The position numbers and the translations under genes were made by a program. The notes below the pieces were generated by a model. It worked only from the letters and a program-made list of their open reading frames with translations, was not told the origin of the DNA and made no database searches. Positions 2,991-22,837 of a DNA stretch of 59,678 nucleotides are shown piece by piece; the stretch's first letter is position 1; the number at the start of each line of letters is the position of its first letter. The DNA is from a virus (Duplodnaviria; Caudoviricetes): positions 1 through 59,678 of IMG/VR virus record IMGVR_UViG_3300018080_000199. The stretch is one strand, 5' to 3'.

Positions 2991-4075
2991 TATCGAGCCT
3001 CCTGAGGTATACCATCTTTACTCTTACCACGGAACTTGAATGTCACTCGGCTCCCACGCGGGAAGTGTACTGCTTCAATCCAATCAGGACATTCAGTCTC
3101 TGGATTATCTTGTGCCCAATCTGAAGCTGGAGTAGCATTCCCGATAATTAAATCAGGATTGTTAATATCAACAAGCAAACGCTCCTCATCCGTGAACCCA
3201 CTTAGCTCTAACCTCTGTCCTGAATCAAGCCTCAATATCAAAGCTCCCATTTTTCCGAGGAGCTTAGAACCTTTATCCGTGCGTCGTCCTGTAATATACC
3301 CGACAACTGTCCCCTCTGCATCCTCAAACTTCTTGACCTTGAGAAGATCATGTGATCTGCATGGCACCCATATGGATTCAGGTTTCCGGAGAATCAGACC
3401 CTCACCACCTGCTACTGAGATTTCTGTGCATTTTTGATTTACTAAATCAATGGCCTTATCAGTTGCAAGTGGTAATCTTTTCTGCACATGCGGGCGGGCA
3501 ATTACATTAGTTGTAAGATTCCTTTGCAATAGAATATATGTACTCTGAAAAGGTGTTGTTTTCTTAGGGTTATACTCAAGACTTGTAATATCGGTATCCT
3601 CATAAACCCATCTACGGATATCTTGAAAATGTTTCTTAAAGTTCGTTGTATTGATGAATCCATCCATGAAGATTCGGTCAAAGGAAGGCATATCAAAACA
3701 AAAGAACAATACCTCATACCATCCTTCACCTGGCTCAAGAGCCTTGACTGTTGACATAAGATCCTGGCGTGGAAGGCCCATGCCATAAAGCTCACCATCC
3801 AGCGGGATTTTGGGAAGTTCGTTGAGCCACCAATCAGGGGCATGAATAACATTTCCATATCGACTCCACAGTCCTGTGGCAATAGGCTCTTTCTTATATC
3901 GCTCATCCTTCTCAGTATTAGCCCATGGTACATCTGATTTAGTAAATCCCCGAGTGATACCACCATCCCAATAAGCTCGCATACCATCAAGCTTCTCGGA
4001 CATGAACCATCCACCGATGCCATGCTTCTCTTCTCTGAATGTATGGGCCAACATAAGGAATTCACGCTTAGGCAT
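2972..4075 (-). CDS. ATP-dependent DNA ligase
   Basis: SEKLDGMR (motif I KxDG), LDGEL, FDMP, EGLILRK, LLKVK, C-terminal OB fold. Confidence 0.93.
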   Translation of the reverse strand: MPKREFLMLAHTFREEKHGIGGWFMSEKLDGMRAYWDGGITRGFTKSDVPWANTEKDERYKKEPIATGLWSRYGNVIHAPDWWLNELPKIPLDGELYGMGLPRQDLMSTVKALEPGEGWYEVLFFCFDMPSFDRIFMDGFINTTNFKKHFQDIRRWVYEDTDITSLEYNPKKTTPFQSTYILLQRNLTTNVIARPHVQKRLPLATDKAIDLVNQKCTEISVAGGEGLILRKPESIWVPCRSHDLLKVKKFEDAEGTVVGYITGRRTDKGSKLLGKMGALILRLDSGQRLELSGFTDEERLLVDINNPDLIIGNATPASDWAQDNPETECPDWIEAVHFPRGSRVTFKFRGKSKDGIPQEARYWRKRN

Positions 4076-4298
4076 CTGGAATCTCCTTTAGAAGAAGCAT
4101 ATCGCCATACCCACTGTAATCATACTTAAGACCTACCCGTAAAGTATAGTGTGGACCAGGATAACCTAACCAATTATTTGCATACATTTGAGCCTCATGC
4201 TCGGTATCAAAGATATGAGTTTTCCAACACTCAGATTTAAGATCTGGAAACCCTTCTCTAGAGGCCGGCTTGTCATTATCGAAAAGCGCATATCTCAT
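4068..4298 (-). CDS. hypothetical protein
   Basis: AAGGAG RBS before ATG 4298. Confidence 0.55.
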   Translation of the reverse strand: MRYALFDNDKPASREGFPDLKSECWKTHIFDTEHEAQMYANNWLGYPGPHYTLRVGLKYDYSGYGDMLLLKEIPDA

Positions 4299-4804: not shown

Positions 4805-5044
4805 CCTCCTTCACCTTTTCTATAGCTTCCTTGATCTTTTTCGCAAGAGCATTTTCAGCCTGAAGAATAAGTGCCTTTTCTTGAGGTCATTGATTTATCA
4901 AATTATTGAAATATGCTTGACAAGTCTGGACAGCAACATTCCAATCTTCTGTATCTTTCCATTCTTTTTTAAAGATCCCCCAAGCTGTTTGCTGGATATT
5001 TAGTCGTTTTCTAGCTGCTTGTTGCCGTCGTTCTTTACGAGTCA

Positions 5045-5263
5045 TTAGACTTCTCCAACTGTACGAGCAAAACTATCTAAACGTAAATCTTTTTCGGCAT
5101 CCCGAATTGTTTTGCTGAGTCCTGCTAATAGTTCTTTAGCTTTTGCAAGATTCATCATGTGAGTAAGTTCACATTGTAAATCACTTACTCGTACAAAAAC
5201 ACCACGTTTCTTTGTGGCTGGATCATCACAATATCCATACTCACATTTGGTTTCGGTATTCAT
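5045..5263 (-). CDS. hypothetical protein
   Basis: ORF coupled to the upstream gene. Confidence 0.5.
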   Translation of the reverse strand: MNTETKCEYGYCDDPATKKRGVFVRVSDLQCELTHMMNLAKAKELLAGLSKTIRDAEKDLRLDSFARTVGEV

Positions 5264-5475
5264 TTCTTTGCCTCCTCATACGCTCGACAGATTTCAAATA
5301 CATCTTCTGACGAGTAGCGACGTTTTCCAGACTTTAGAATTATTACTGTTTCTCCTGGCCTTTCTGGGCCAGCATGATCAATACTTTCGATAAGACTAAT
5401 ATCAACACTCCGACATTTGGAATTAGGGTTTGCCGGAAGAAATTCTATACGCCGTACTATAATGGCTTTAGCCAT
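5260..5475 (-). CDS. FlbD/SwrD-like small protein (tentative)
   Basis: VDISLIESI...ETVIILKSGKRRYSSEDVFEI resembles the FlbD pattern LIETIE..PDTVITL.NGKK..V.ES..EV. Confidence 0.4.
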   Translation of the reverse strand: MAKAIIVRRIEFLPANPNSKCRSVDISLIESIDHAGPERPGETVIILKSGKRRYSSEDVFEICRAYEEAKK

Positions 5476-7131: not shown

Positions 7132-7460
7132 GTTCTTCTCCCGGACATCTGGTGAACATTCCGATCATCCATACCCTCGCTACGTAGCAAACAAAACTTT
7201 TCCAGATCCTTGAGACAGGAACGTGGGATCATGACACTTGCAACTCCGCCACTGTTCCAATTCGTTTCCCGAGTACATGTGATAGTGCCACCGAAGAACT
7301 CTTCAATGATCTTGCATCCTTCTTCAGTGAGATCGCAAAGTACTCGCATATTGAAAGCACACGCCTCACCAGTAAGGATGTTGATCCCGGAATCATAGAT
7401 AATGCGATCCATGGCTTCTCCTAGCATACAGGCATTGGGCACTGAACCTTGACACCACAA
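7128..7460 (-). CDS. hypothetical protein
   Basis: ORF in the gene run; true start probably the internal ATG (MDRII). Confidence 0.55.
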   Translation of the reverse strand: MWCQGSVPNACMLGEAMDRIIYDSGINILTGEACAFNMRVLCDLTEEGCKIIEEFFGGTITCTRETNWNSGGVASVMIPRSCLKDLEKFCLLRSEGMDDRNVHQMSGRRT

Positions 7461-7795: not shown

Positions 7796-7813
7796 TGCTA
7801 GTCCTCCTATGAT

Positions 7814-8251
7814 TTAGCAAATTACTCCTGCCTCTTGGAAACTGAAAAAACAATCCTTGCCAAGAATCACATGATCCAGAACTCGAAGTCCAAGAAGCTT
7901 TCCGCACTTGCATAGCCGTTCTGTAAGACTACGATCCTCAGGACTCGGAGTACAATCACCACTTGGATGGTTATGTATGAAAGCCACTGCTGCTGCACCA
8001 TCAATAAGAGCCGGACGAAAAACTTCTCTCGGATGCACAAGTGAGGCTGTGAGCGTACCCAAAGAGACAAGATGCTTGTCAATGACCTTATGCTTTTGAT
8101 TCATTGTCACGACAAAGAATGCTTCCTGAGAAAGTTCTCTTGAGTCTTCAAACATTCTCACAAAGTCCTTGGCATCAGTGGCTATACATCCAGTGGCTTC
8201 TCGGACCTGCATTGTCTTGAATTTTACTTGACAACCATACTGAGTAGCCAT
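7814..8251 (-). CDS. radC: RadC-like JAB domain protein
   Basis: SQEAF, GTLTASLVHPREVF, HNHPSGDCTPSPED, VLDHVI; start at ATG 8251 behind GGGAGG. Confidence 0.9.
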   Translation of the reverse strand: MATQYGCQVKFKTMQVREATGCIATDAKDFVRMFEDSRELSQEAFFVVTMNQKHKVIDKHLVSLGTLTASLVHPREVFRPALIDGAAAVAFIHNHPSGDCTPSPEDRSLTERLCKCGKLLGLRVLDHVILGKDCFFSFQEAGVIC

Positions 8252-8276
8252 TGCCATCCTCCCATGATTTATCAAA

Positions 8277-8543
8277 TTACTCATTCTCCTCAGGAATACT
8301 GATCTCCAGCCCTTCATACGTGGAGCCGTCGGGATTTTCCTTCGGCACCTGTCGAAAGGTTGCATGAGGAAAATTCCGGTTCATGTAATTGTTGAACGCG
8401 GCATTGTTCCTTGCTCGCTGCCTCACGAACTTTGCGAACTTTGTCAACCACCATAATTCCTCACGCGTAAGCGTATCCACTGAACGACCAAACGCCTTTT
8501 CAAACTCCTGTGATACAACGTCGCCATCAAACTTGTAAGCCAT
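8277..8543 (-). CDS. hypothetical protein
   Basis: GGAGG RBS. Confidence 0.65.
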   Translation of the reverse strand: MAYKFDGDVVSQEFEKAFGRSVDTLTREELWWLTKFAKFVRQRARNNAAFNNYMNRNFPHATFRQVPKENPDGSTYEGLEISIPEENE

Positions 8544-8738
8544 TCCTAGTCCTCCTGTGATTTGGTAAATTACTTATTCTCAGACTTTGGCTTCTGAACC
8601 ATACCACCACAGAACCAACAATGTTTTACCTTACACTCAGGGCATTCTGCAATATCCTCATCCGAACACATTGGACAATGACCATTATTTGGACAAGGAA
8701 TATTTGGTCCAAGACCTTCACATTCAGGACACTTATAC

Positions 8739-9193: not shown

Positions 9194-9952
9194 TCAACTA
9201 TTCTTGTCACTTCCTCGCCGCTCTGAGTCATGAGGATCACTTCCAGTTCCATTAGCTTCCCTCCTAATAAAACGAGTAAACTTCTTTCCAATATCATCCA
9301 AGATTTGGCTCACACGAGCCGGCGAAATCCTTAAGATCTTAGCAATATCACGACCTGTGTGGTTCTCTAGTCTCAGCTTCAAAACCTCTTGCTCCTGGGT
9401 TGAAAGATAATTTAGAAAATCATGGATCTCATAATCATTTTCATCATATTGCGGAGGAAGGAGGCTTATCTCAGCATCATTGGTATATGCTGTATTGTCC
9501 TCGTCCTCTTGAACTTTTCCGTGCAGGTTTATTGTGTAGGGGAGAATATTCTCCTCTCTCATTTTCTTTATCTGTTTCTGAGGAATCCGTATTACATGAT
9601 CCTCAGATAAAAACTTATGAATAGCGGAATGTACTTTTATTGTTATATATCCCCCTATATTATTATGTACGTGCGCGCACATGCGATCTACAGCTTCTAC
9701 AAGACCGATCATAGCTGCCGATACAATATCATCTTTCTTTTTAGGGTATCGTGCCACATATCCCCCACAAATCTGCAATACCAAACGCACATGAGACATG
9801 ATAAGTGTCTCACGTGCATCTGTGTCACCAGCGCGGTGTTTTGCAAGAAGATCGGTAAGTTCAGGAAGGGATAACTGATTTGGTAAATCAGATTGCCCAA
9901 TAGGATGGACAACATTATAACGGATTCTCTTTTTTGATCCACCAAGATACAT
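9194..9952 (-). CDS. sigma-70-family RNA polymerase sigma factor
   Basis: Region 2 (ARETLIMSHVRLV...DDIVSAAMIGLVEAVDR) and region 4 HTH (LSTQEQEVLKLR...DIAKILRISPARVSQI). Confidence 0.85.
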   Translation of the reverse strand: MYLGGSKKRIRYNVVHPIGQSDLPNQLSLPELTDLLAKHRAGDTDARETLIMSHVRLVLQICGGYVARYPKKKDDIVSAAMIGLVEAVDRMCAHVHNNIGGYITIKVHSAIHKFLSEDHVIRIPQKQIKKMREENILPYTINLHGKVQEDEDNTAYTNDAEISLLPPQYDENDYEIHDFLNYLSTQEQEVLKLRLENHTGRDIAKILRISPARVSQILDDIGKKFTRFIRREANGTGSDPHDSERRGSDKNS

Positions 9953-9963
9953 CCTACGCTCCC

Positions 9964-10287
9964 TGATTCACTAAATTATTTATGGGCCATGGATTTACTG
10001 AAATAATTTAATTCAGTAAAATAATTTAATTCAGTAGAATAATCCTCCCTGGATACGGAACCTCCGCCTATACCATACTATATGTATGGTCCTTAGTCAA
10101 CTAGAATCTTATAAGTCATTATATTCCAAGGGTTTAAAATGACAATTCAAACCGGAGAATTTCACGAAATTCTCTGGCACAGTATTTGCTAGATGAATTA
10201 TTTTACTGAATTAAATTATTTTTAGACCTCCTGATTCTATAATATAATTCAATAAATTATTTAGTATCTGAGGGATTTACTAAATTA
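9964..10287. promoter_or_regulatory. control region 1: inverted arrays of an 18-bp repeat flanking a promoter
   Basis: ATAATTTAATTCAGTAAA tandem copies at about 10001-10043, with inverted copies at about 10194-10222. Confidence 0.7.
10072..10100 (-). promoter_or_regulatory. sigma70-like promoter upstream of the sigma-factor/early operon
   Basis: TTGACT-N17-TATGGT on the - strand. Confidence 0.55.
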
Positions 10288-12645: not shown

Positions 12646-12997
12646 TCCTCCCCATACTTAAATCCACAAAATTCGGAAAATATAACATAACATCTGTTTC
12701 ATGAAATTCAATTTGTTGAATTAATTCCTCCTTACTATATGTGCTCCAATATTTGATCCTTAGTTTTCGTGCTAGTTTTTGAAGTTTAACCATTGGCCAA
12801 TCTTGTATCTTTGTCTCCTCCAATATATCCATTAAGATAATATCAAGAAGATTTTCTGATAGGATCTCTTCCAGGAATCCAATTAATGATTCCATTTCTT
12901 CATCTTTTAGGCTCCTATTCTTAACATGGTATTCAATTTTACGTAACTTATTAACACGTTGTCGTAATAACTGAAGTAACTCTACTTTTCTCCCCAT
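12473..12997 (-). CDS. protein with Rho-N-terminal-like helix-extension-helix domain
   Basis: LQKLARKLRIKYWSTYSKEELIQQI. Confidence 0.55.
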   Translation of the reverse strand: MGRKVELLQLLRQRVNKLRKIEYHVKNRSLKDEEMESLIGFLEEILSENLLDIILMDILEETKIQDWPMVKLQKLARKLRIKYWSTYSKEELIQQIEFHETDVMLYFPNFVDLSMGRNEDGKRSTRTDEKTEGSTRRRYKSRVEEIRSKVSRPFEHGRTSGSIQGLQSSKESTT

Positions 12998-15213
12998 GAT
13001 TTAATACTCACTTTCCAAGTTATACTAAGTAATGGTACATATTTTTTATATTCTTCAACAAATGCCTCAACGAGTTTGGTTGAATGATTTGCTAAATCAG
13101 GAACCATAGGACACATGATCTCATCATGTACGTTTAAGGGCATAACACGCCAATCGGAAACACCTATTGGTTGTAGATCCCATAGACGACGTTGGAGTTC
13201 CTTCGTAATAGTAGCCCCAGGGGACTGAATGACATGATTGCCCGCCGCCCGCATGTTTGCACTTTGGATTGCGAAGGCAGCCCCATAGAGTGCAGATTGT
13301 AATGCGCCAGAGGCGGTTTGCTGTCGCTCTCGGCGCATAACTTTAATCTTATATTCCCTCCACTCTTTGGGAGGATCTTGTGCAAGATCATATAAGGCTC
13401 TACAAATTTTATTTTCAAGTGTAAAATACCTCCTAAATCCAAACATACTTTCAATATATTCTTGTGGTTCATGCCATTCTACAGCAGTACCAATACCATC
13501 GGGTTGTCGCATACTGCAAAAGGCATCAAAGACTTTTTGTCTTGCTCTATGGACACCTGGGAATCGCTTACCGAAACTCTTGAAAGCTTGAACGGCAATA
13601 TCATGTGGTATTCCGAGTTTTGATTCAAGTGTATACTCGGTTCCCCCATAACCCATTCCAAATACACCTTGTTTCCCGTCCTTATATCTTGTACCATTAA
13701 CGTATTGGTTAAGAAATTCTCCACGATCATCTTCCTCCATGATCTCCTCATATGTAGATCCTGGATAAAGTTCCATAGCGAATAGAGCATGGATCTTTTT
13801 ACCTGCCATAAGTTGTTTACGTAGTTCTGGATCTTTCCACTCAGCTTCCATCAAAGAGACTTCAAAAGCATCAAAATCACCCCCACTTAAATCAAATCCA
13901 TCTGGTGCAAGTTGAAAACAAGCTCGAACTTTTTTATCTTTCTTAATACCTTGAGGATTCAATCCATCAGAACCAGACATTCTTGTACTCTTAGTTCCAA
14001 TAACTTTGAAACCAGCATAAAATTTTCCTGCTCGAATAAGCTTATCATAAAGTTCAATCTCTTTCTGAGCTTCCCGAGCATTTAGTACTTGTTGTGCTGC
14101 TACTGCTGCTGGATGATTAGTTCCATCTTCCTTTATCCATTTTGTGATCTCTTGGAGAACAACCTTCTTTGTGCTATTTCGGATCACTAATCTCTCAGTG
14201 GTATTCATATGTTGTTCAACAAACTTACGTGCTGGTCTAGGTGCTGTTGGAATTTCCTCCACTAACTTAGCTGCTTGATCGCGTAATTTACTAAGTTGTT
14301 CAACATTGATCTTAAAACCCTTCCATCTTACTGCTCCAACCATACATGCCAGTTCTGAATCGGTATCACCAGGTTCGGGATCTCCGAAATAATGATAAAG
14401 ACCCCGTGTATATTCTACATCATCGCCAGCATATTTTTTAGCGAGAGGGTTGAAAGCCCAATAATTTATATGATGTTTAATAACTTCTGGCCAATTACCT
14501 CCATAAGGTACATACTCATCTTCCTTTGGTCGCCACTCAGGATCAACACCAATTTGATCCCCGATCCGTAATATATCATCCTCTGAGATTCCAAGAGCGT
14601 CTACAGCTAGAGCCTTTAATGCGGTTGATGGCTCAAACTTTAATTCAAGATCCTTAAAATTAGGATTAATCTCACCATCAAGATCTGTGATATCCCGTAT
14701 TTGCCATTGTGGAATATTTTTACGTTTACGTCTGGCAAAATAAATTCCAGGTAACGGGATTACTTCTTCAAGCTTTTTAGCAAGAGCCTTAGCCAAGACT
14801 GTAGGAACACGTTTTACGCGAATTGGCTTCCGATCCATGGTACTTTGATAAGGGCCTTTTCTCGCGTGCAACATAATATCACATGCTGCTTTGGGTTTCA
14901 AACATGGTCCCTCTTGAGCCAGAATCTCATAATTTGCTAAATCAGAGATTACATTCTGTGGGATCGCGGATTTATCTGGATAAGCCAGAAACATAGTATA
15001 GATCTTGCAAAGATGAAATTGATCAAATGCCAAGTTGAACCCACAAATGGCCTTTCCCATCATCCATTCGATAAGATCTATTGTCTCTTGTATCGGATGT
15101 TTCCAAATATCCCACTGGATAATTGGACCTTCATCTTCAGCATATTGAATAGTAACCGCTGGACCTTTGAATCCACAGGTCTCGGTGTCAAAGTAAATCA
15201 TACCATTCCCCAT
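12982..15213 (-). CDS. polA: DNA polymerase family A with 3'-5' exonuclease
   Basis: FDTET, GFNLAFD, YAGDDV (exonuclease); TRMSG..LNPQ, DFDAFE (motif A), RYKDGKQGVFGMGYG (motif B, Phe at the 762-equivalent position), VHDEI (motif C). Confidence 0.93.
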   Translation of the reverse strand: MGNGMIYFDTETCGFKGPAVTIQYAEDEGPIIQWDIWKHPIQETIDLIEWMMGKAICGFNLAFDQFHLCKIYTMFLAYPDKSAIPQNVISDLANYEILAQEGPCLKPKAACDIMLHARKGPYQSTMDRKPIRVKRVPTVLAKALAKKLEEVIPLPGIYFARRKRKNIPQWQIRDITDLDGEINPNFKDLELKFEPSTALKALAVDALGISEDDILRIGDQIGVDPEWRPKEDEYVPYGGNWPEVIKHHINYWAFNPLAKKYAGDDVEYTRGLYHYFGDPEPGDTDSELACMVGAVRWKGFKINVEQLSKLRDQAAKLVEEIPTAPRPARKFVEQHMNTTERLVIRNSTKKVVLQEITKWIKEDGTNHPAAVAAQQVLNAREAQKEIELYDKLIRAGKFYAGFKVIGTKSTRMSGSDGLNPQGIKKDKKVRACFQLAPDGFDLSGGDFDAFEVSLMEAEWKDPELRKQLMAGKKIHALFAMELYPGSTYEEIMEEDDRGEFLNQYVNGTRYKDGKQGVFGMGYGGTEYTLESKLGIPHDIAVQAFKSFGKRFPGVHRARQKVFDAFCSMRQPDGIGTAVEWHEPQEYIESMFGFRRYFTLENKICRALYDLAQDPPKEWREYKIKVMRRERQQTASGALQSALYGAAFAIQSANMRAAGNHVIQSPGATITKELQRRLWDLQPIGVSDWRVMPLNVHDEIMCPMVPDLANHSTKLVEAFVEEYKKYVPLLSITWKVSIKSWGEK

Positions 15214-16380: not shown

Positions 16381-16841
16381 ACTCCCACATAGTAATAGTT
16401 CTTCTCAACAGGATAACGTCGCCACCCATTAGTACTTAAAAAGTCTTTCTTACTCCATAAGCTTTTATGAATATTATAAGGATTTCCATAATACCAAGAT
16501 TGTTTATCCTTAACAATATTCTCATCCCATCTAAGTGGTGTTAGTAATATTAACTCCCTCTTACATACTCTTTTCGCATCCTCAAGAATAATAAGTCCAC
16601 GCCCTTTATCTAAATGCTCTATAAGATCTAGCATTAATACTATATCAAAAACGCCTCCCCAACTGGCCGGTAAACCTTCGGTACTAAGATCAATAAGATG
16701 ATCAGGATTTGCTTTTGGCCATATATCTACTGTTGTAACATTTTGTAATGTTCTACTGACTTTGCAATTCCCACATCCAAGATCAAGTATCTTATCTCCT
16801 GGTTGAACTCTCTGATTTACAAAATCAATAATCCCAATCAC
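16362..16841 (-). CDS. class I SAM-dependent methyltransferase
   Basis: ILDLGCG, TVDI, FDIVLMLDLIEHL, LLTP. Confidence 0.88.
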   Translation of the reverse strand: MIGIIDFVNQRVQPGDKILDLGCGNCKVSRTLQNVTTVDIWPKANPDHLIDLSTEGLPASWGGVFDIVLMLDLIEHLDKGRGLIILEDAKRVCKRELILLTPLRWDENIVKDKQSWYYGNPYNIHKSLWSKKDFLSTNGWRRYPVEKNYYYVGVWKCLK

Positions 16842-17728
16842 GAGACAGCCCTCTCCCCTTTAACATCAATACCTGCAAGACTAGCAGCACTTTCACGTGG
16901 AATAATATAAGCTCTGCCTTTCTCATCCGCAATCTTCTTTACTTCATAAAAGATCTCACTATCAGAGATTTCACCAGCACACCACGCGAGACAACGTGTG
17001 CCAAAGTTATTGCCAATTGAATCTTGAACATGATCCATCATTGCAAAGATTTCCTGCTTACCTCTTGCTCGTTTGACAAGTGAATTCTCCTGTCTCCTAG
17101 CTCTAATAACAGGAGTTTTCTCACCTTTTTCCTTAGCTATTTTAATCTTCTTCACTGCTTCCATCTGCATTTCTCTAGTAGGTAGATTCTTAATATCTCG
17201 AATCTGATGCTGTGTTATAAATCCTGCTGCTGCTTGAGTTTGAATCTCTTGTGGGAGTTCTAAGAGATATGTTCTCACCTGAACCCACCCATATGATTTA
17301 CCAAGTTCTGTAGCAATCTCTTGCAGTGTTAATCCAAATGCCTTCAAATGCTCTACAGCCTGAGATTCTTCCACAATGTTTAAATCTTTTCGGAGGAGAT
17401 TTTCTCTTAGATTTAAGATCCGGGCATCTCTCTCATTTGTAACTCGGCTAATTGTAGCTTTAATTGTTTTAAGACCAAGAACCTTATGAGCAGTGTACCG
17501 ACGGAAACCTGCAATGAGTCTCCATTTATAGAATTTATTAACATACTCTTGCTCATATTTCTGAACAATAACAGGAGATAATAACCCATTCTTCTCAATA
17601 TCCCTTGCCAACTCCTGAACATCTACAGGAGCAATCTGTCCACGACAATTCATATTCTGATCCATAAGGATATCAGTTAAAGGTATACTTATGATCTCAT
17701 TATCAACACTTTGCTCTGATCTTTCCAT
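16838..17728 (-). CDS. ParB/Spo0J-like protein 1
   Basis: ELARDIEKNGLLSPVIV, LIAGFRRYTA, ENLLRKDL, HTH LQEIATELGKSYGWV. Confidence 0.9.
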   Translation of the reverse strand: MERSEQSVDNEIISIPLTDILMDQNMNCRGQIAPVDVQELARDIEKNGLLSPVIVQKYEQEYVNKFYKWRLIAGFRRYTAHKVLGLKTIKATISRVTNERDARILNLRENLLRKDLNIVEESQAVEHLKAFGLTLQEIATELGKSYGWVQVRTYLLELPQEIQTQAAAGFITQHQIRDIKNLPTREMQMEAVKKIKIAKEKGEKTPVIRARRQENSLVKRARGKQEIFAMMDHVQDSIGNNFGTRCLAWCAGEISDSEIFYEVKKIADEKGRAYIIPRESAASLAGIDVKGERAVS

Positions 17729-19659
17729 TATTCTTCTCCATATACAATAGTATCAACTTCTCGTGCAATCGTAGTTCTCATTATATTTCTAAAATCTCCA
17801 AGACTCATAGCTTGCAGATCTCGTTTCTTTCTTAAATTGTTAAGAATATACATGTCACTTTCAAGGTGAATAATATCAATAATCGTAGCTCCACGGTTCT
17901 CATCCATACCAGGACGATGGATACGATCTTCACTTTGGATACGACTATTAGCATTGAAATCATTACTATAATAAATCACTGCCGGTGATGCTGTGAGATT
18001 AAGGCCCTCACCTGCTGCTCCTGGTTGCCCAACAAATGCCAATCTAGGATACTTTTCCAAAAGCTCATTACGACGAGGATGTGTACGGTCCATAGCAATA
18101 AGCATATCATCTTTATTCTCATCGCCAAAGGCCATCCACCCTCGTCCATCTGCACGTAATACTGTCCACTTCTGTTCGACACATGTTTTAACAATCCGAT
18201 CAATCGAACCAGTGAAACCACCATAAATAACAAGCCTCCCAACATCACTGTATTCATCAAGAAGATCAATAAGAGCATTAACCTTGGGACATGGGACTTC
18301 CTCTACAATTCGATTTGTCTTATCAATCTCACCAGTCCCACCGCACTTATCACAAATCATCATTTCTTTCTTAACATCAGAGTTCTCTAATGGGGCTTGT
18401 GTATTTTCAATTCCAACATAAGTTTCACGTTCCCCTTCACCATTACAGAGAGGACAAATTTGTGTGCCAACTACTTCTTCATGATATTGAAAACCATCAG
18501 ATAACTCTCTCATTCTCTCCATACCAGTAATAACTCGGGGTGCTGTACTTACCAATGCTTCAGCAACTTGAAGTGTAGTATGATTTGGCTTACACTCAAT
18601 AATTTTGTAAATTTTATCTGGAAGATCAAGACAATCTTTCTTGAAGAATACAATCACAAGACCCTTCATACGTCTATAAAGCGCAGCTACTTCATTCTTG
18701 GATGATTGAAAATGGTGCTTATCTCCAGCTAAATCCCCAATATTATGATTTGGGTGCTCTTCATACTCTCCACATTCGGAACATTTATTTTCATCATCTA
18801 ACCAAGTGACAAGATGAGGGTATTGTCCACCTGTAATTTGATTCTCTTTCCATTGAATAACAGATAATCTCTTTTTAAAATTATTTATATTTCCTTCTTT
18901 TAAGAAGCCAGGGCAAGCGATCTCGCACTGGAAGTACCAATCAGCAGGACTCTTTGGTGCTGGAGCACCAGACATAAGGATACAGAAACCTTCCATACCC
19001 CAATCCTCTCGGATACCTTCTGCAAGCTGCATAGCTGCTTGACTTCGTAAAGCCGAAGGTGTCTTAACTCTTGCTGACTCATCAAAGATTACTCCTTTAG
19101 GAGCTTTATCGCTAGGGTTCCAATTCTCGATGACACTACGTAATCTTTCATATGTCATTCGAATTGGATCAATCTTGCAATTCCATTTCTGGAATTCAAG
19201 TTTAATTGCTCTTAAAGCACTCTTAGGGCCAATCCAATACCAATCACTAAAATTACTTGCTTCTATCAATTCGATAGCTGCAAGCGTCTTACCACAACCC
19301 ATTTCGGCTGCCCAAATACCATAATGCACGGTCAAACCGTGCCGAATCATTTCAAATTGATGAGAAAATAAAGGACGGGAGGATTCGTAATTTACTAAAT
19401 CACGGTCATATATCTCATAGGGATTTTCACCCATGAGATATTGAAGTTGAAAGCGATTTCTACCTGTATCTTTTATAGACCAAGCTTTACGAGGAGTGGG
19501 CTTATCGAAACCATGCCATTTAGCACCATCAAAGGATTTAATCTCTTTGAGGAGGGTTTGGTTATATCTAAAAGCTAAGAAGATTTGGTTATTTTCTAAC
19601 CACATCTTAGCGTTTATCATCTTCCTACCAGCACGCAACTTAATATCTTTCACAGACAT
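17728..19659 (-). CDS. SNF2-like superfamily 2 helicase
   Basis: AEMGCGKT, IFDES, MSGAP, GEGLNLT, QSEDRIHRPG. Confidence 0.9.
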   Translation of the reverse strand: MSVKDIKLRAGRKMINAKMWLENNQIFLAFRYNQTLLKEIKSFDGAKWHGFDKPTPRKAWSIKDTGRNRFQLQYLMGENPYEIYDRDLVNYESSRPLFSHQFEMIRHGLTVHYGIWAAEMGCGKTLAAIELIEASNFSDWYWIGPKSALRAIKLEFQKWNCKIDPIRMTYERLRSVIENWNPSDKAPKGVIFDESARVKTPSALRSQAAMQLAEGIREDWGMEGFCILMSGAPAPKSPADWYFQCEIACPGFLKEGNINNFKKRLSVIQWKENQITGGQYPHLVTWLDDENKCSECGEYEEHPNHNIGDLAGDKHHFQSSKNEVAALYRRMKGLVIVFFKKDCLDLPDKIYKIIECKPNHTTLQVAEALVSTAPRVITGMERMRELSDGFQYHEEVVGTQICPLCNGEGERETYVGIENTQAPLENSDVKKEMMICDKCGGTGEIDKTNRIVEEVPCPKVNALIDLLDEYSDVGRLVIYGGFTGSIDRIVKTCVEQKWTVLRADGRGWMAFGDENKDDMLIAMDRTHPRRNELLEKYPRLAFVGQPGAAGEGLNLTASPAVIYYSNDFNANSRIQSEDRIHRPGMDENRGATIIDIIHLESDMYILNNLRKKRDLQAMSLGDFRNIMRTTIAREVDTIVYGEE

Positions 19660-19677
19660 ATTACCTCCTTAACAAAC

Positions 19678-20175
19678 TTATTTCTCCTTCAGTATTACCG
19701 TCTTATCTGGAAGACGTTCCCGTGCATAATTATCCCATATCAATCTAAAATCATATGCTTCAAAAACTCCTAGCAATTGATTAAAGAATTGGCGTCTTTT
19801 CTTATTGAAATCATCACTGAACCATAAATTAGTTCGAACGGTATCTTTCCATTGACGTAATGTTCCAACTAACAAAGCCGTTTGATTTGGTAAATCATAT
19901 TTTGTTACAGATCCATACCAATCAAAATCTAAACTATCAACCATAAATAACATAGAGACAGTATCCATATAAAGACCGCCTCCACGAATGGTATCTACTG
20001 GTTCTTTATTAAATCCCATAACCTCATTAAGTGTTAAGGGAAAAGTTAATTGCTCATTGAATTTTAGTTTTGACTCATCTAATTTACGAGTAGGCACCTT
20101 ACCATAAACTTCTTTACAGAAGCTAAGATATTTTGACCAATCAATATGTGTAAAACCTATAAGATCTATCTTCAT
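19678..20175 (-). CDS. hypothetical protein, possibly degenerate ThyX-like fold
   Basis: MKIDLIGFT N-terminus and LPNQT..LVGTLRQWK recall ThyX; the RHR signature is absent. Confidence 0.35.
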   Translation of the reverse strand: MKIDLIGFTHIDWSKYLSFCKEVYGKVPTRKLDESKLKFNEQLTFPLTLNEVMGFNKEPVDTIRGGGLYMDTVSMLFMVDSLDFDWYGSVTKYDLPNQTALLVGTLRQWKDTVRTNLWFSDDFNKKRRQFFNQLLGVFEAYDFRLIWDNYARERLPDKTVILKEK

Positions 20176-20199
20176 ATATGCCCAGGCCCACCAAACATT

Positions 20200-20233
20200 A
20201 AAAAAACAAAATACCAGTCTCGGCTTACTGGCA
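20200..20233 (-). terminator. intrinsic terminator
   Basis: TGCCAGT-AAGCCGAG-ACTGGTA followed by TTTTGTTTTTTT on the - strand. Confidence 0.7.
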
Positions 20234-20268
20234 TGGCTCTTTAAGACCAACTGACTGCCATAATCTTT

Positions 20269-20560
20269 TAAGTCCTGTATTTATAAATCCCCCAGGCCCG
20301 AATTAAGGGTTTGCAGTCGCGTAGAGCTTTCCTTGTTCCTTGCTAGCTGGATCGTCACCCCAGGAAACAAGACTGACGATATACGCTAAATCACCCCATG
20401 TAAAAGTGTACCCTGAGCCGCTAACTATAAGGTCCAGGCATCAATGTCCTTTATCCTTATGGCGCGGTTCCCTCCCGATCCGGGATAAAGCTGAGGTTTT
20501 GTACCAGCGTCCTGGATTTGTCCTCTTTTCTATAAATCTCAGGGCATCCACGTGGACTTA
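20269..20560 (-). ncRNA. putative large structured ncRNA or cis-regulatory leader
   Basis: Gene-free on the - strand; nested helices closed by TAAGTCC/GGACTTA (see findings). Confidence 0.55.
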
Positions 20561-21208
20561 TTATCGCTCCCGACCGTCAGCAGGAGCCTCTTCTGTTTCT
20601 TCTTGCTTTGGAGGATTGGCAAACTTTACTGCTTCCTGCTTGATCTCTTCCTCAGAAGGAATATCAAAAGGACTAGTACACTCAGTAACCAGAGGCCCCC
20701 ACCACGAGTAACGCTTATTCTCAATAAAGTGTGTCTTGAATGTTGCAGCCTTACGCAAGAGCTTGAAAATGTTCTTTGATTCTCTCCTGGCTGTAGCACT
20801 CCCACAGAAAAAGGTTGCAAAACTCTTTACACTCGGGAGATAAACAAGAAACTCCGGACCCCACATACATCCTGAATTTGAAACCTTTGACTCTTCCTGA
20901 ATCCGCTGGAATTCATCACTTTCTTTATCGTGTGAGAAGCTCAGGCTATCCTCATTGGTATCAATAGCTGTCCAACGCATATGAATAATGAGGGCATCAA
21001 CCTGATTTGTTAAATCAACAACATCATCCTCACTACGTACCAGCGCATAATTTCCAACCTTGGCAAGATTCTTCTTACCAACCTTGGAATTAGAGTCAAC
21101 AACTTGCAGACGCGGGAGCCAGTCTCCACCAACAAGAGCGGAGAATTCCTTTTCACCAACTGGAACAACCGGCATTCCATCGACCTTAACAAGTTCATTC
21201 TCAGACAT
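20561..21208 (-). CDS. putative single-stranded DNA-binding/replication protein
   Basis: WLPRLQVVDSNS-type N-terminus seen in phage replication-module proteins; acidic C-terminus; location. Confidence 0.5.
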   Translation of the reverse strand: MSENELVKVDGMPVVPVGEKEFSALVGGDWLPRLQVVDSNSKVGKKNLAKVGNYALVRSEDDVVDLTNQVDALIIHMRWTAIDTNEDSLSFSHDKESDEFQRIQEESKVSNSGCMWGPEFLVYLPSVKSFATFFCGSATARRESKNIFKLLRKAATFKTHFIENKRYSWWGPLVTECTSPFDIPSEEEIKQEAVKFANPPKQEETEEAPADGRER

Positions 21209-21254
21209 TCGTAACTCCTTTAGTGATTTGGTAAATTAGTGTTAGTGTTAGTGT

Positions 21255-22214
21255 TTACTCAGCGGGGACGCCAGCCTCCGCTGCCTTTGCTGCTGCTGCT
21301 TCCTGCTTCTTCTTTTCTCTCTCAGCCTTCCGCGCTGCCTTAGCTTCCTCACGCTCCTTTCTGCGCTGTTCCCAATTGGCCCTGTCAATCTCGATACTAT
21401 CAGGATCAACCTGAAGTACCCACTTAATTGCCATTGCAAAGCCCTCTTCGGCTGTCCCGAGCCCGTGCTTATTACACAGATTCTTACTAATTGAATCTTC
21501 CTCAAGCTCATTCTTAATCTGTGCAATCTTCCTCATTCTCGGTACTGCTGCAAACTCTTCCGGCTTTGCATCTCGCCCCTCCCGCTTTGCAGCACGGATC
21601 TCACCAAGACGCGCCTGCACTTCAGGAATGAACTTGGCAGGTGAATCAGTCTGAGCCCGATCCGCAAAATTGACTTGTTCTTCAGGAGGGAGTTTCGCTA
21701 AATGATTGGCATTGGACACACAGATATCTCCATTGTCAACCATATCAGCGAGCTTATCAGTGAGCTTAACAAGCCCCAACCTCTCATTCAACCACGAGGT
21801 ACTAACAGACAAACGAGTTGCCAGTTCCGCAATCGTAACAAACGGATTAAGACCTAGCAAACGATTCAACTGCTTGGCATACTCGGCAGGTCTTGTCTCA
21901 ATCTTATGCAGATTAGCAGAAAGCTGTGCCTCAAGCACATCGCCTTCATTCATATCCTTAATCAGCATAGGAATGGTTTCAAGCCCTGCATCCTTGGCCG
22001 CATTAAATCGCTGCAACCCATCAATAAGACCAATGTACTCATCACCAGTCTCAGGGTCTTTGCACTTGCGGCCAAGAGGCGGATTCAAGATACCCTTGCT
22101 CTTGACTGAATCCACCAATTCCTGATACTTCTCTGACTCCCGTTTTACTTCGCGTAGAGCGGCAGGATTCTCACGAATATTTGCCAACTCCACATTTTCC
22201 AGCACTTCACTCAT
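21255..22214 (-). CDS. ParB-like protein 2
   Basis: ELVDSVKSKGILNP, LIDGLQRFNAAK.AGLETIP, HTH IAELATRLSVSTSWL; start at ATG 22214 behind GGAGG. Confidence 0.88.
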   Translation of the reverse strand: MSEVLENVELANIRENPAALREVKRESEKYQELVDSVKSKGILNPPLGRKCKDPETGDEYIGLIDGLQRFNAAKDAGLETIPMLIKDMNEGDVLEAQLSANLHKIETRPAEYAKQLNRLLGLNPFVTIAELATRLSVSTSWLNERLGLVKLTDKLADMVDNGDICVSNANHLAKLPPEEQVNFADRAQTDSPAKFIPEVQARLGEIRAAKREGRDAKPEEFAAVPRMRKIAQIKNELEEDSISKNLCNKHGLGTAEEGFAMAIKWVLQVDPDSIEIDRANWEQRRKEREEAKAARKAEREKKKQEAAAAKAAEAGVPAE

Positions 22215-22258
22215 AACCAATCCTCCATTACAGAGTAACCTTCAGCCCCATGCTGAAG

Positions 22259-22357
22259 TAATTTACTAAATCAGAGTCCGGGGATGGCATTTCCCAAGAT
22301 GTGGGCACAATGATCTTGCAAGAATGGGAGGGGACCGGACTCTGATTTAGTAAATTA
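22259..22357. repeat. perfect 23-bp inverted repeat in the ParB-2 leader
   Basis: TAATTTACTAAATCAGAGTCCGG (22259-22281) / CCGGACTCTGATTTAGTAAATTA (22335-22357). Confidence 0.9.
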
Positions 22358-22377
22358 TTACAGGGCATGAGACACCT

Positions 22378-22837
22378 TGAAAATAATTTAATTCAGTAAA
22401 ATAATTTGATTCAGTAAAACAATACCACTAGCAGGAATGACACAAGATCATTGTAACTAATGATACGGCAATATCTATCGAAAATCAACCAGAATTTGAG
22501 AATATATTATTACACAAATGTAACAATATATTACACACTACTACTAGGTAACTCCTATTTACCTATATAGTAAATGTATTAAATACATTATATATATAAG
22601 TTAATATCGGAAGTAGTAAGTAGTAAAATTAATATAAGTATATGATATATAAGGATTTACAGCATTTCTTACTTTACTGTTTCTGTAACACTATGATATA
22701 TAAGAACTTACGAAAACGCTTAACCTTTACTGGATTTTGCCGTATCATAATATACGGAAAAGTATCCTGAATTAAATTATTTTACTGAATTAAATTATTT
22801 TTAGCTATGTGATCTTAAAATATAATTTAGTAAATCA
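22378..22837. promoter_or_regulatory. control region 2: divergent promoters, AT-rich core and inverted 18-bp arrays; possible origin
   Basis: - strand TTGATT-N17-TATCAT (22488-22460) and + strand TTAACC-N17-TATCAT (22720-22748), both with TTGCCGTATCAT; arrays at about 22380-22420 and 22768-22803. Confidence 0.7.

Follow-up and report, generated by a model that had tools for sequence, protein, structure and literature searches.

The DNA considered here, IMG/VR virus record IMGVR_UViG_3300018080_000199, has been analysed over its whole length of 59,678 bases (the window) and belongs to a tailed phage; it encodes portal, major head and tape-measure proteins and has its replication module on the minus strand. 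Within that module, a gap of 385 nt (20176-20560) separates two genes termed p1 and p2. By sequence comparison, the gap is made up of two separate conserved and predicted folded RNA elements, modules A and B, rather than one large closed RNA. As both structures contain many G-U pairs, which would be mismatches on the other strand, the RNA is taken to be that of the gene (minus) strand, on which the locus reads in the direction of transcription as follows.

20561-21208, minus strand: p1, an open reading frame (ORF) call of 215 aa upstream of the gap.
20399-20561, minus strand: module A, a branched hairpin with a four-way junction directly after the p1 stop, defined by covariance model R1, fold z-scores and pair counts.
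20202-20385, minus strand: module B, a pseudoknot, a long hairpin and a conserved-loop hairpin, defined by covariance model R2 and pair counts.
19678-20175, minus strand: p2, 165 aa, downstream of the gap, with close homologs in the related loci L004, L047, L048 and L049.

The modules have been found in several combinations among these related loci. In alignments, module A is homologous to L048:1703-1852 and L049:923-1068, and module B to L004:4671-4829 and L047:1-92, the latter with its 5' side cut by the contig end. The window holds A together with B, while A is combined with a transfer-messenger RNA (tmRNA) gene in L048 (tmRNA 1852-2232) and with a plain terminator in L049. Module B is situated directly 5' of a tmRNA gene in L004 (tmRNA 4830-5214) and in L022, and ahead of a plain terminator and p2 in L047, where no tmRNA is present. 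Identity between the window and L048 amounts to 64% in module A and to 65% in both p1 and p2, that between the window and L004 to 62% in module B, 65% in p1 and 63% in p2, and that between L048 and L049 to 88% in module A and 85% in both genes. The modules thus appear to be about as conserved as the flanking coding DNA, and unselected intergenic DNA would not be expected to be alignable at such divergence. The gap itself is not protein-coding; its sole minus-strand ORF of at least 30 aa (20441-20551, GTG start) is not kept among the homologs, since alignment with L048 and L049 places gaps of 1 and 2 nt inside it, and no shared frame exists in L004.

A first-pass annotation, made from the letters of the window, had described the gap as one large structured RNA closed by an outer helix 20269-20275/20554-20560. 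All of the complementary stretches on which that description was built are present in the sequence at the positions given for them, but the outer helix would join modules that occur apart (A in L048 and L049, B in L004 and L047) and, as it bridges elements that are separate in the relatives, it cannot be a conserved feature. The single large RNA has therefore been given up in favour of two modules with separate evolutionary distributions. For the gap as a whole, the folding z-score is −0.45. The more general proposal of an unrecognised conserved minus-strand RNA structure has held, with compensatory changes supporting several helices and no Rfam family matching, whether at gathering scores or with E relaxed to 10. 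At gathering scores, Rfam 15 has reported only a transfer RNA (tRNA) at 10-93 in the whole window, and at E up to 10 only a chance match to a small nucleolar RNA (14.8 bits, E 8.1) over 19900-20900; self-cleaving ribozymes (hammerhead, twister, pistol, hatchet and others in Rfam) have given no match in this region at E up to 10. The lack of tRNA or tmRNA ends, also noted at first pass, is borne out by Rfam and by ARAGORN, which has reported neither a tRNA nor a tmRNA in the gap. GenBank phages have yielded no blastn match for 19600-21300. The gap had furthermore been called exceptional for its size, which is overstated in view of the other window stretches that have no ORF of at least 60 aa, namely 22221-22808 (588 nt), 9953-10256 (304 nt) and 4805-5044 (240 nt).

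Module A is composed of the following parts.

20538-20552, minus strand: 5' strand of the closing helix (helix 1), 14 pairs, of which 2 are changed on both sides; pairing in 97.6% of cells.
20493-20525, minus strand: hairpin P2, whose GAGG/CCUC stem is invariant, with an internal loop of two A-rich strands (ACAAA) and an inner stem ending in a GACG loop.
20406-20417, minus strand: 3' strand of the closing helix, followed by a short U tract.
20399-20405, minus strand: the short U tract, ACUUUUA, kept in all three copies.

All three copies of module A adjoin p1 directly and fold alone into the same four-way junction, in which a closing helix of 12-14 bp, followed by ACUUUUA, encloses three hairpins, namely P2 and two whose sequence varies between copies. 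The outer stem of P2 is invariant, whereas its inner stem differs in sequence between the window and L048/L049 with the pairing preserved. RNAalifold has placed 38 pairs in the module, with 91% of cells paired; doubly changed pairs number 7, a count reached by none of 500 shuffles (2.4 ± 1.3); slid controls have 0-2. Relative to shuffled sequences the fold is stable both in the window (z −2.71, 1 of 200 as good) and in L048 (z −6.47, 0 of 200). The covariance model R1 scores the three sequences from which it was built at 117 bits (window), 166 bits (L048) and 163 bits (L049), and has found no further copy over 41 sources; its next matches are plain hairpins at the same place after p1 in L026 (E 0.11) and L011 (E 5.4). 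From its sequence and predicted fold, we read module A as the hairpin at the end of p1 in which a conserved 110-nt domain replaces the loop. Among the inner helices originally drawn here, 20409-20417/20538-20546 is the closing helix itself and 20449-20456/20483-20490 belongs, roughly, to the module A fold, while a local hairpin with the GACG loop is formed in all three copies in place of 20433-20438/20511-20516. The idea that module A might be a CsrA sponge, suggested by its GGA motifs, has been dropped, as the GGA in a hairpin loop is not kept in L048 and L049.

Module B is composed of the following parts.

20374-20380 with 20351-20357, minus strand: pseudoknot stem S1, 7 bp in the window, assigned by inspection.
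20362-20371 with 20332-20340, minus strand: pseudoknot stem S2, 10 pairs, all of them formed (100%), with 3 doubly changed when the window is compared with L004.
20313-20327 with 20236-20258 (span 20236-20327), minus strand: long hairpin P3, with a 3'-side internal loop containing UUGG.
20211-20234, minus strand: hairpin T, 8 pairs in a G+C-containing stem, an 8-nt loop and a T-rich tail in a terminator scan.
20197-20210, minus strand: U-rich tail of hairpin T, from sequence reading and the terminator scan.

In L004, a 5-bp helix of different sequence takes the place of S1, shifted by one column in the MAFFT alignment and recognised by inspection only, so that the corresponding first-pass helix has an equivalent there. 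Together, S1 and S2 form an H-type pseudoknot, both stems of which are kept in the homolog, the structure being carried by two sequences only (window and L004). The loop-loop pairing that is now S2 had been proposed as a kissing loop; the pairing has stood, but since the hairpin 20325-20328/20345-20348 needed for one of the two loops is not kept in L004, the arrangement is better called an H-type pseudoknot. In hairpin P3, the sequence of the basal helix differs in every copy with the pairing kept, and the UUGG loop occurs in all four copies. Hairpin T, which had been recognised as a U-tailed terminator and is the sole minus-strand terminator-like site found by the scan in 19500-21400, likewise has a CCGAG loop motif in all four copies and a covarying stem. 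The CCGA of this loop could pair with the UUGG internal loop in every copy; as both motifs are invariant, such a docking lies beyond a covariation test.

The covariance model R2 scores the sequences from which it was built at 179 bits (window), 162 bits (L004) and 78 bits (L047, with its 5' side cut). Over 43 sources it has added a fourth copy with a weaker score, at L022:4110-4222 (20.9 bits, E ~1e-3; E 1.9e-6 when 601 nt were searched without filters), which ends 2 nt before the tmRNA at 4225 and has the UUGG and CCGAG loops on different stems. For the three sequences, 97% of cells are paired and 7 pairs are doubly changed, compared with 3.8 ± 1.3 in shuffles (6 of 500 as high). With the fourth sequence added, in an alignment that was fitted to the model and so leans towards it, 94% are paired and 14 pairs doubly changed, compared with 6.5 ± 1.8 (0 of 500) and with 0-3 in slid controls. 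The 3' block of the module, of ~45 nt, is unusually conserved. A promoter reading of this block has been dropped, as no acceptable −10 and −35 hexamers at fixed spacing are seen by eye in the four copies.

The place in which the modules are found can be compared across the relatives of the phage. Homologs of p1 have been found on 39 IMG/VR contigs, and the region behind the p1 stop has been surveyed at 33 loci. L003 and L009 were left out because their hit pattern is the same as that of L002 and L008, L015, L016, L019 and L024 because they are on the same contigs as L002-L005, and L042-L044 because they end before the stop; L004 was handled apart. An uninterrupted stem of at least 8 bp lies within 90 nt of the stop at 31 of the 33 loci and one of at least 10 bp at 26, whereas coding-sequence controls have given 15 and 4 of 33, respectively. 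At least five T among the ten bases after the stem are present at 13 of the 33 loci, and the hairpins of several relatives have large loops of 21-43 nt. The role of this near-universal hairpin may be to protect the 3' end no less than to terminate transcription. The distance between p1 and p2 is ~50-125 nt in most related loci. When 23 of the 39 contigs were compared with Rfam at gathering scores, a tmRNA was found in the slot behind p1 in L004 and L022, which together with L048 makes three loci, a tRNA directly after the p1 hairpin in four further loci (L012, L020, L023, L033), and, in L008 and L017, three tRNAs at a greater distance downstream. In view of these occurrences, the slot just after the p1 hairpin can be regarded as a recurrent landing place for RNA genes. 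The tmRNA of L004 (4830-5214) scores 128.5 bits in Rfam, yet is not reported by ARAGORN, and those of L022 and L048 are Rfam assignments alone.

Two further features of this slot have been seen in the relatives. Between the tmRNA and the p2 start of L004, three tandem 9-nt units (GGGTAGATA) occupy 5253-5310. Directly after the stop of the p1 homolog in L022, a hammerhead-like core (3640-3703), with CUGAUGA and GAAAC boxes around two hairpins and with one stem missing, scores 18.9 bits with Rfam Hammerhead_3 (E 0.34; gathering score 48.5); it opens an ORF-poor stretch of 583 nt that ends in the module-B-like element and the tmRNA.

The neighbouring genes of the replication module, all of them on the same strand as the modules, give the setting for a functional interpretation.

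21255-22220, minus strand: ParB-like gene, upstream of p1 in the replication module.
17728-19659, minus strand: SNF2-type helicase gene, following p2.
16838-17728, minus strand: second ParB-like gene of the replication module.
12982-15213, minus strand: DNA polymerase gene of the replication module.

With rather less than even confidence, we prefer a cis-acting reading, in which the two conserved RNA structures of the gap, independent of each other, set the read-through from p1 into the replication genes. The two structures, their conservation, their modular distribution and their position between p1 and p2 are direct observations, and both modules would be transcribed as a 3' extension of the p1 message. 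In nearly all relatives the p1 transcript would end in a stable hairpin, of which module A would be an elaborated form: three conserved inner hairpins stand where other relatives have a plain loop, and the 12-14-bp closing helix with the short U tract would act as a weak terminator and 3'-end protector. Module B would be a second self-contained unit, whose hairpin T with its long U run may be the main intrinsic terminator in this phage, situated upstream of the genes for p2, the helicase and the DNA polymerase. Between them, the stops of A and B would determine the share of p1 transcription that continues into these three genes, and in L048, L004 and L022, where the same elements stand just ahead of a tmRNA, that RNA would be made by read-through and 5' processing. 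A control of read-through into the helicase and polymerase genes had also been considered at first pass, and it fits the gene order as predicted from the sequence.

Both modules resemble intrinsic terminators in some respects: each is situated at the end of a gene and on the strand of that gene, hairpin T with a stem of 8 bp, a loop of 8 nt and a long run of U (in the window and in L004), module A with a long helix followed by UUUU. They are unlike them in others. The 'loop' of module A is a conserved 110-nt domain of three hairpins, and hairpin T has an invariant loop motif and no U tail in two of its four copies, whereas ordinary terminators conserve neither their loops nor neighbouring pseudoknots.

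Several points weigh against the cis-acting interpretation. Plain terminators need neither conserved loops nor a pseudoknot. The strictly conserved loops (UUGG, CCGAG, the ACAAA strands, GACG) and the loss of the U tail in half of the module B copies do not fit it and point to a recognition or tertiary function instead. The tail follows hairpin T in the window and in L004 and is missing in L047 and L022, with the loop motifs invariant throughout, which argues against termination as the conserved function of module B. The U tract of module A is short, with four U, and its ~110-nt 'loop' falls outside the definition used in the terminator scan. In L048, the tmRNA begins 2-3 nt past this U tract, so that A must be read through there or a promoter must be hidden inside it. 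Module B folds no better than shuffled sequences (z −0.06 for the window copy and −0.99 for that of L004, with energies that ignore the pseudoknot), and the same is true of the gap as a whole, for which 26 of 100 shuffles are as good. The copies known are few, three for module A, effectively in two lineages, and three to four for module B; the structures have been derived from the same sequences, and shuffle controls overstate significance for related sequences, the fitted four-sequence alignment of module B adding to this. The transcription of the modules, their termination or stabilising effect and the setting of read-through are what we infer from these structures.

Possible, though doubtful, is the explanation that one or both modules, and B above all, are stand-alone genes of stable small RNAs, cassettes comparable to the tRNA and tmRNA genes of the slot, which would act in trans on a host or phage target or bind a protein. 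Such cassettes are suggested by the slot itself, which holds a tmRNA in L004, L022 and L048 or a tRNA in L012, L020, L023 and L033, and by the free mixing of the modules (A with B, A with tmRNA, A alone, B with tmRNA, B without it). The most conserved parts of module B are the single-stranded loops UUGG and CCGAG, found in all four copies and typical of a recognition surface, and its structure is kept in the window and in L047 with no tmRNA nearby. Speaking against it, no site ahead of module B is convincing as a promoter: the only sigma-70-like one (20404-20376) scores 9 of 12, and such sites are no commoner in the region than in shuffles. Module A, for its part, is tied to the 3' end of p1 in all three copies and thus looks cis-acting. 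Small stable RNAs of obscure role are known from phage tRNA clusters, such as the species 1 and 2 RNAs of T4 and the GOLLD and ROOL RNAs next to phage tRNAs, of which Rfam holds the latter two. These are likewise structured non-coding RNAs at a locus with tRNA-type genes; their sizes differ from those of the modules, and the comparison, made via Rfam only, has given no match.

A regulated switch, either riboswitch-like or a protein-dependent attenuator, in which an alternative pairing decides on the terminator and so gates the tmRNA or the replication genes, is considered unlikely. Module A contains two invariant copies of CUCAG, either of which could pair with the invariant CUGAG of the closing helix to give mutually exclusive folds, and the docking of the CCGA in the T loop on UUGG, which could be drawn in every copy of module B, would offer a further alternative. 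All of these pairings use invariant bases, so that covariation cannot test them. The first-pass annotation had proposed that TGGCA (minus strand), which is indeed present at 20256-20260, pairs with the 5' arm of the terminator as an antiterminator. In the window and in L004 the bases adjoining hairpin T can indeed pair with its 5' arm, which would make a switch of this kind possible, but the pairing cannot be drawn in L047 and L022, where the bases belong to another conserved helix. No riboswitch family of Rfam has matched, the neighbouring genes give no clue to a ligand, and the downstream gene varies between copies (tmRNA or p2), unlike that of most riboswitches. A precedent is provided by phage Melnitz, for which a two-piece tmRNA is reported with a glutamine riboswitch in the 3' domain of ssrA, proposed to control it (PMC9004378). 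The likeness consists in a structured RNA adjoining a phage tmRNA, as A does in L048 and B in L004 and L022; the Melnitz riboswitch lies in the 3' domain, whereas the modules stand directly 5' of the tmRNA, the tmRNAs of the relatives are one-piece, the window has none, and neither the glnA nor any other riboswitch family of Rfam has been matched. The bolder version, in which module B would be a new class of sensor or catalytic RNA, its CCGAG loop maybe docking on UUGG, that gates the expression or processing of the phage tmRNA and of the replication genes, and module A a second, unrelated switch built into a terminator hairpin, is regarded as quite improbable.

It is very unlikely that the conserved blocks act as DNA, that is, as a replication origin, a site for a ParB-like protein, an attachment site or a mimic of a clustered regularly interspaced short palindromic repeat (CRISPR). 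The gap does lie inside the replication module between the two ParB-like genes, and the strong conservation of the module B 3' block could be read in this way. The compensatory changes and the frequent G-U pairs point, however, to single-stranded RNA of one strand, and the window contains neither iterons nor a second copy of either block. A scan with the module B block over one genome for each of 185,579 prokaryote species has returned two isolated sites (L050 and L051) in unrelated contexts and no repeat array, which speaks against the core of an attachment site and against a CRISPR-repeat mimic; both sites have been judged to be chance. Pattern searches of viral contigs have recovered only the L004 contig with two module B patterns and nothing with a module A pattern, and in related whole records the models have found no further copy either (5 records for R1; 9 for R2, which recovered the known copy of L004 alone). 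At the L051 site (7409-7448, on a contig of a Gemmatimonadales metagenome-assembled genome), 34 of 44 letters are as in the module B 3' block of L004, which is more than the search pattern forced; the site overlaps the beginning of an oppositely oriented PadR-like ORF and has been taken as chance in view of the G+C-rich genome and the unrelated context.

Disfavoured most of all, and hardly to be expected, is a decayed and now functionless remnant of a tmRNA gene or its leader: three relatives have a tmRNA in the slot, module B lies directly 5' of it in two of them (L004 and L022), and the first bases past module A in the window begin GGGG, like the tmRNA at the same place in L048, but neither the one-piece nor the permuted tmRNA family of Rfam matches at E up to 10, ARAGORN reports none, all 18 local alignments of A and B with the three phage tmRNAs stay at the level of shuffles (z −1.3 to 2.0, with at best 10 of 200 shuffles scoring as high), and coding-like conservation with compensatory changes is not expected of a decaying remnant. 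With tmRNA as a family (RF00023), the modules have in common the genomic slot, a comparable overall length (384 nt) and, in module B, an H-type pseudoknot; they differ from it in having no tRNA-like acceptor and T-arm end, no conserved tag frame, no Rfam or ARAGORN match and no sequence likeness above shuffles.

Modules A and B are probably best classified as new motifs, without an Rfam match, of a known general kind, the conserved intergenic RNA structures of phages. A published mining of IMG/VR for structured RNAs has reported 8,495 candidates, of which 1241 overlap predicted terminators (PMC10690425). The modules resemble these candidates as conserved intergenic phage structures, many of them terminator-linked, and either module may already be listed among them. 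The non-coding RNAs of phages are poorly charted, and both motifs are situated at a tRNA/tmRNA recombination hot spot inside a replication module. If they set read-through, the phage would tune the dosage of its helicase and polymerase with modular RNA parts, and a plain terminator hairpin would be seen to be expandable into a conserved domain of several helices; should module B act together with the tmRNA or upon it, this would bear on the question of why phages carry tmRNA at all. With three to four copies per module, the whole is to be taken as a lead rather than a result.

Concerning the flanking genes, p1 has given no match in Pfam, PHROG and PDB (profile) searches; in the ESM Atlas it lies near Pam3_Gp34/DUF5895 clusters, no more than a lead. 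The p2 protein matches neither Pfam nor PHROG families and is well conserved in a small sub-group only, with 57% identity to L004 and ~25% to the rest; a search with the p2 alignment has recovered only L004's contig among viral contigs, and L047, L048 and L049 among metagenome contigs. Four public sequencing runs contain the phage, all of them of DNA, with no RNA run among those listed. Contigs of run X2 span the gap except for short breaks between contigs and those of X3 cover just both of its ends, whereas those of X4 and X5 stop short of it. The X2 and X3 contigs are identical to the window wherever the gap is covered and hence offer no natural variants for pairing tests.

Some further observations have been made elsewhere in the window. 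A tRNA-Leu gene (anticodon TAA) lies on the minus strand at 7-93, at the window edge, so that a phage tRNA gene is present at another locus. Just upstream of several minus-strand genes including p1, a motif of ~15 nt, TAATTTnCCAAATCA in the minus-strand reading, is followed by GGAGGA (7802-7824, 8257-8279, 8550-8572 and 21216-21238; also 9876-9894 and 19883-19901) and might be a promoter or leader element common to these genes. The two largest stretches without an ORF, 9953-10256 and 22221-22808, which are likely regulatory regions and one of which may be an origin, have in common a perfect 30-nt repeat (10196-10225 and 22775-22804) and tandem 18-nt A/T-rich units (9983-10043 and 22381-22441).

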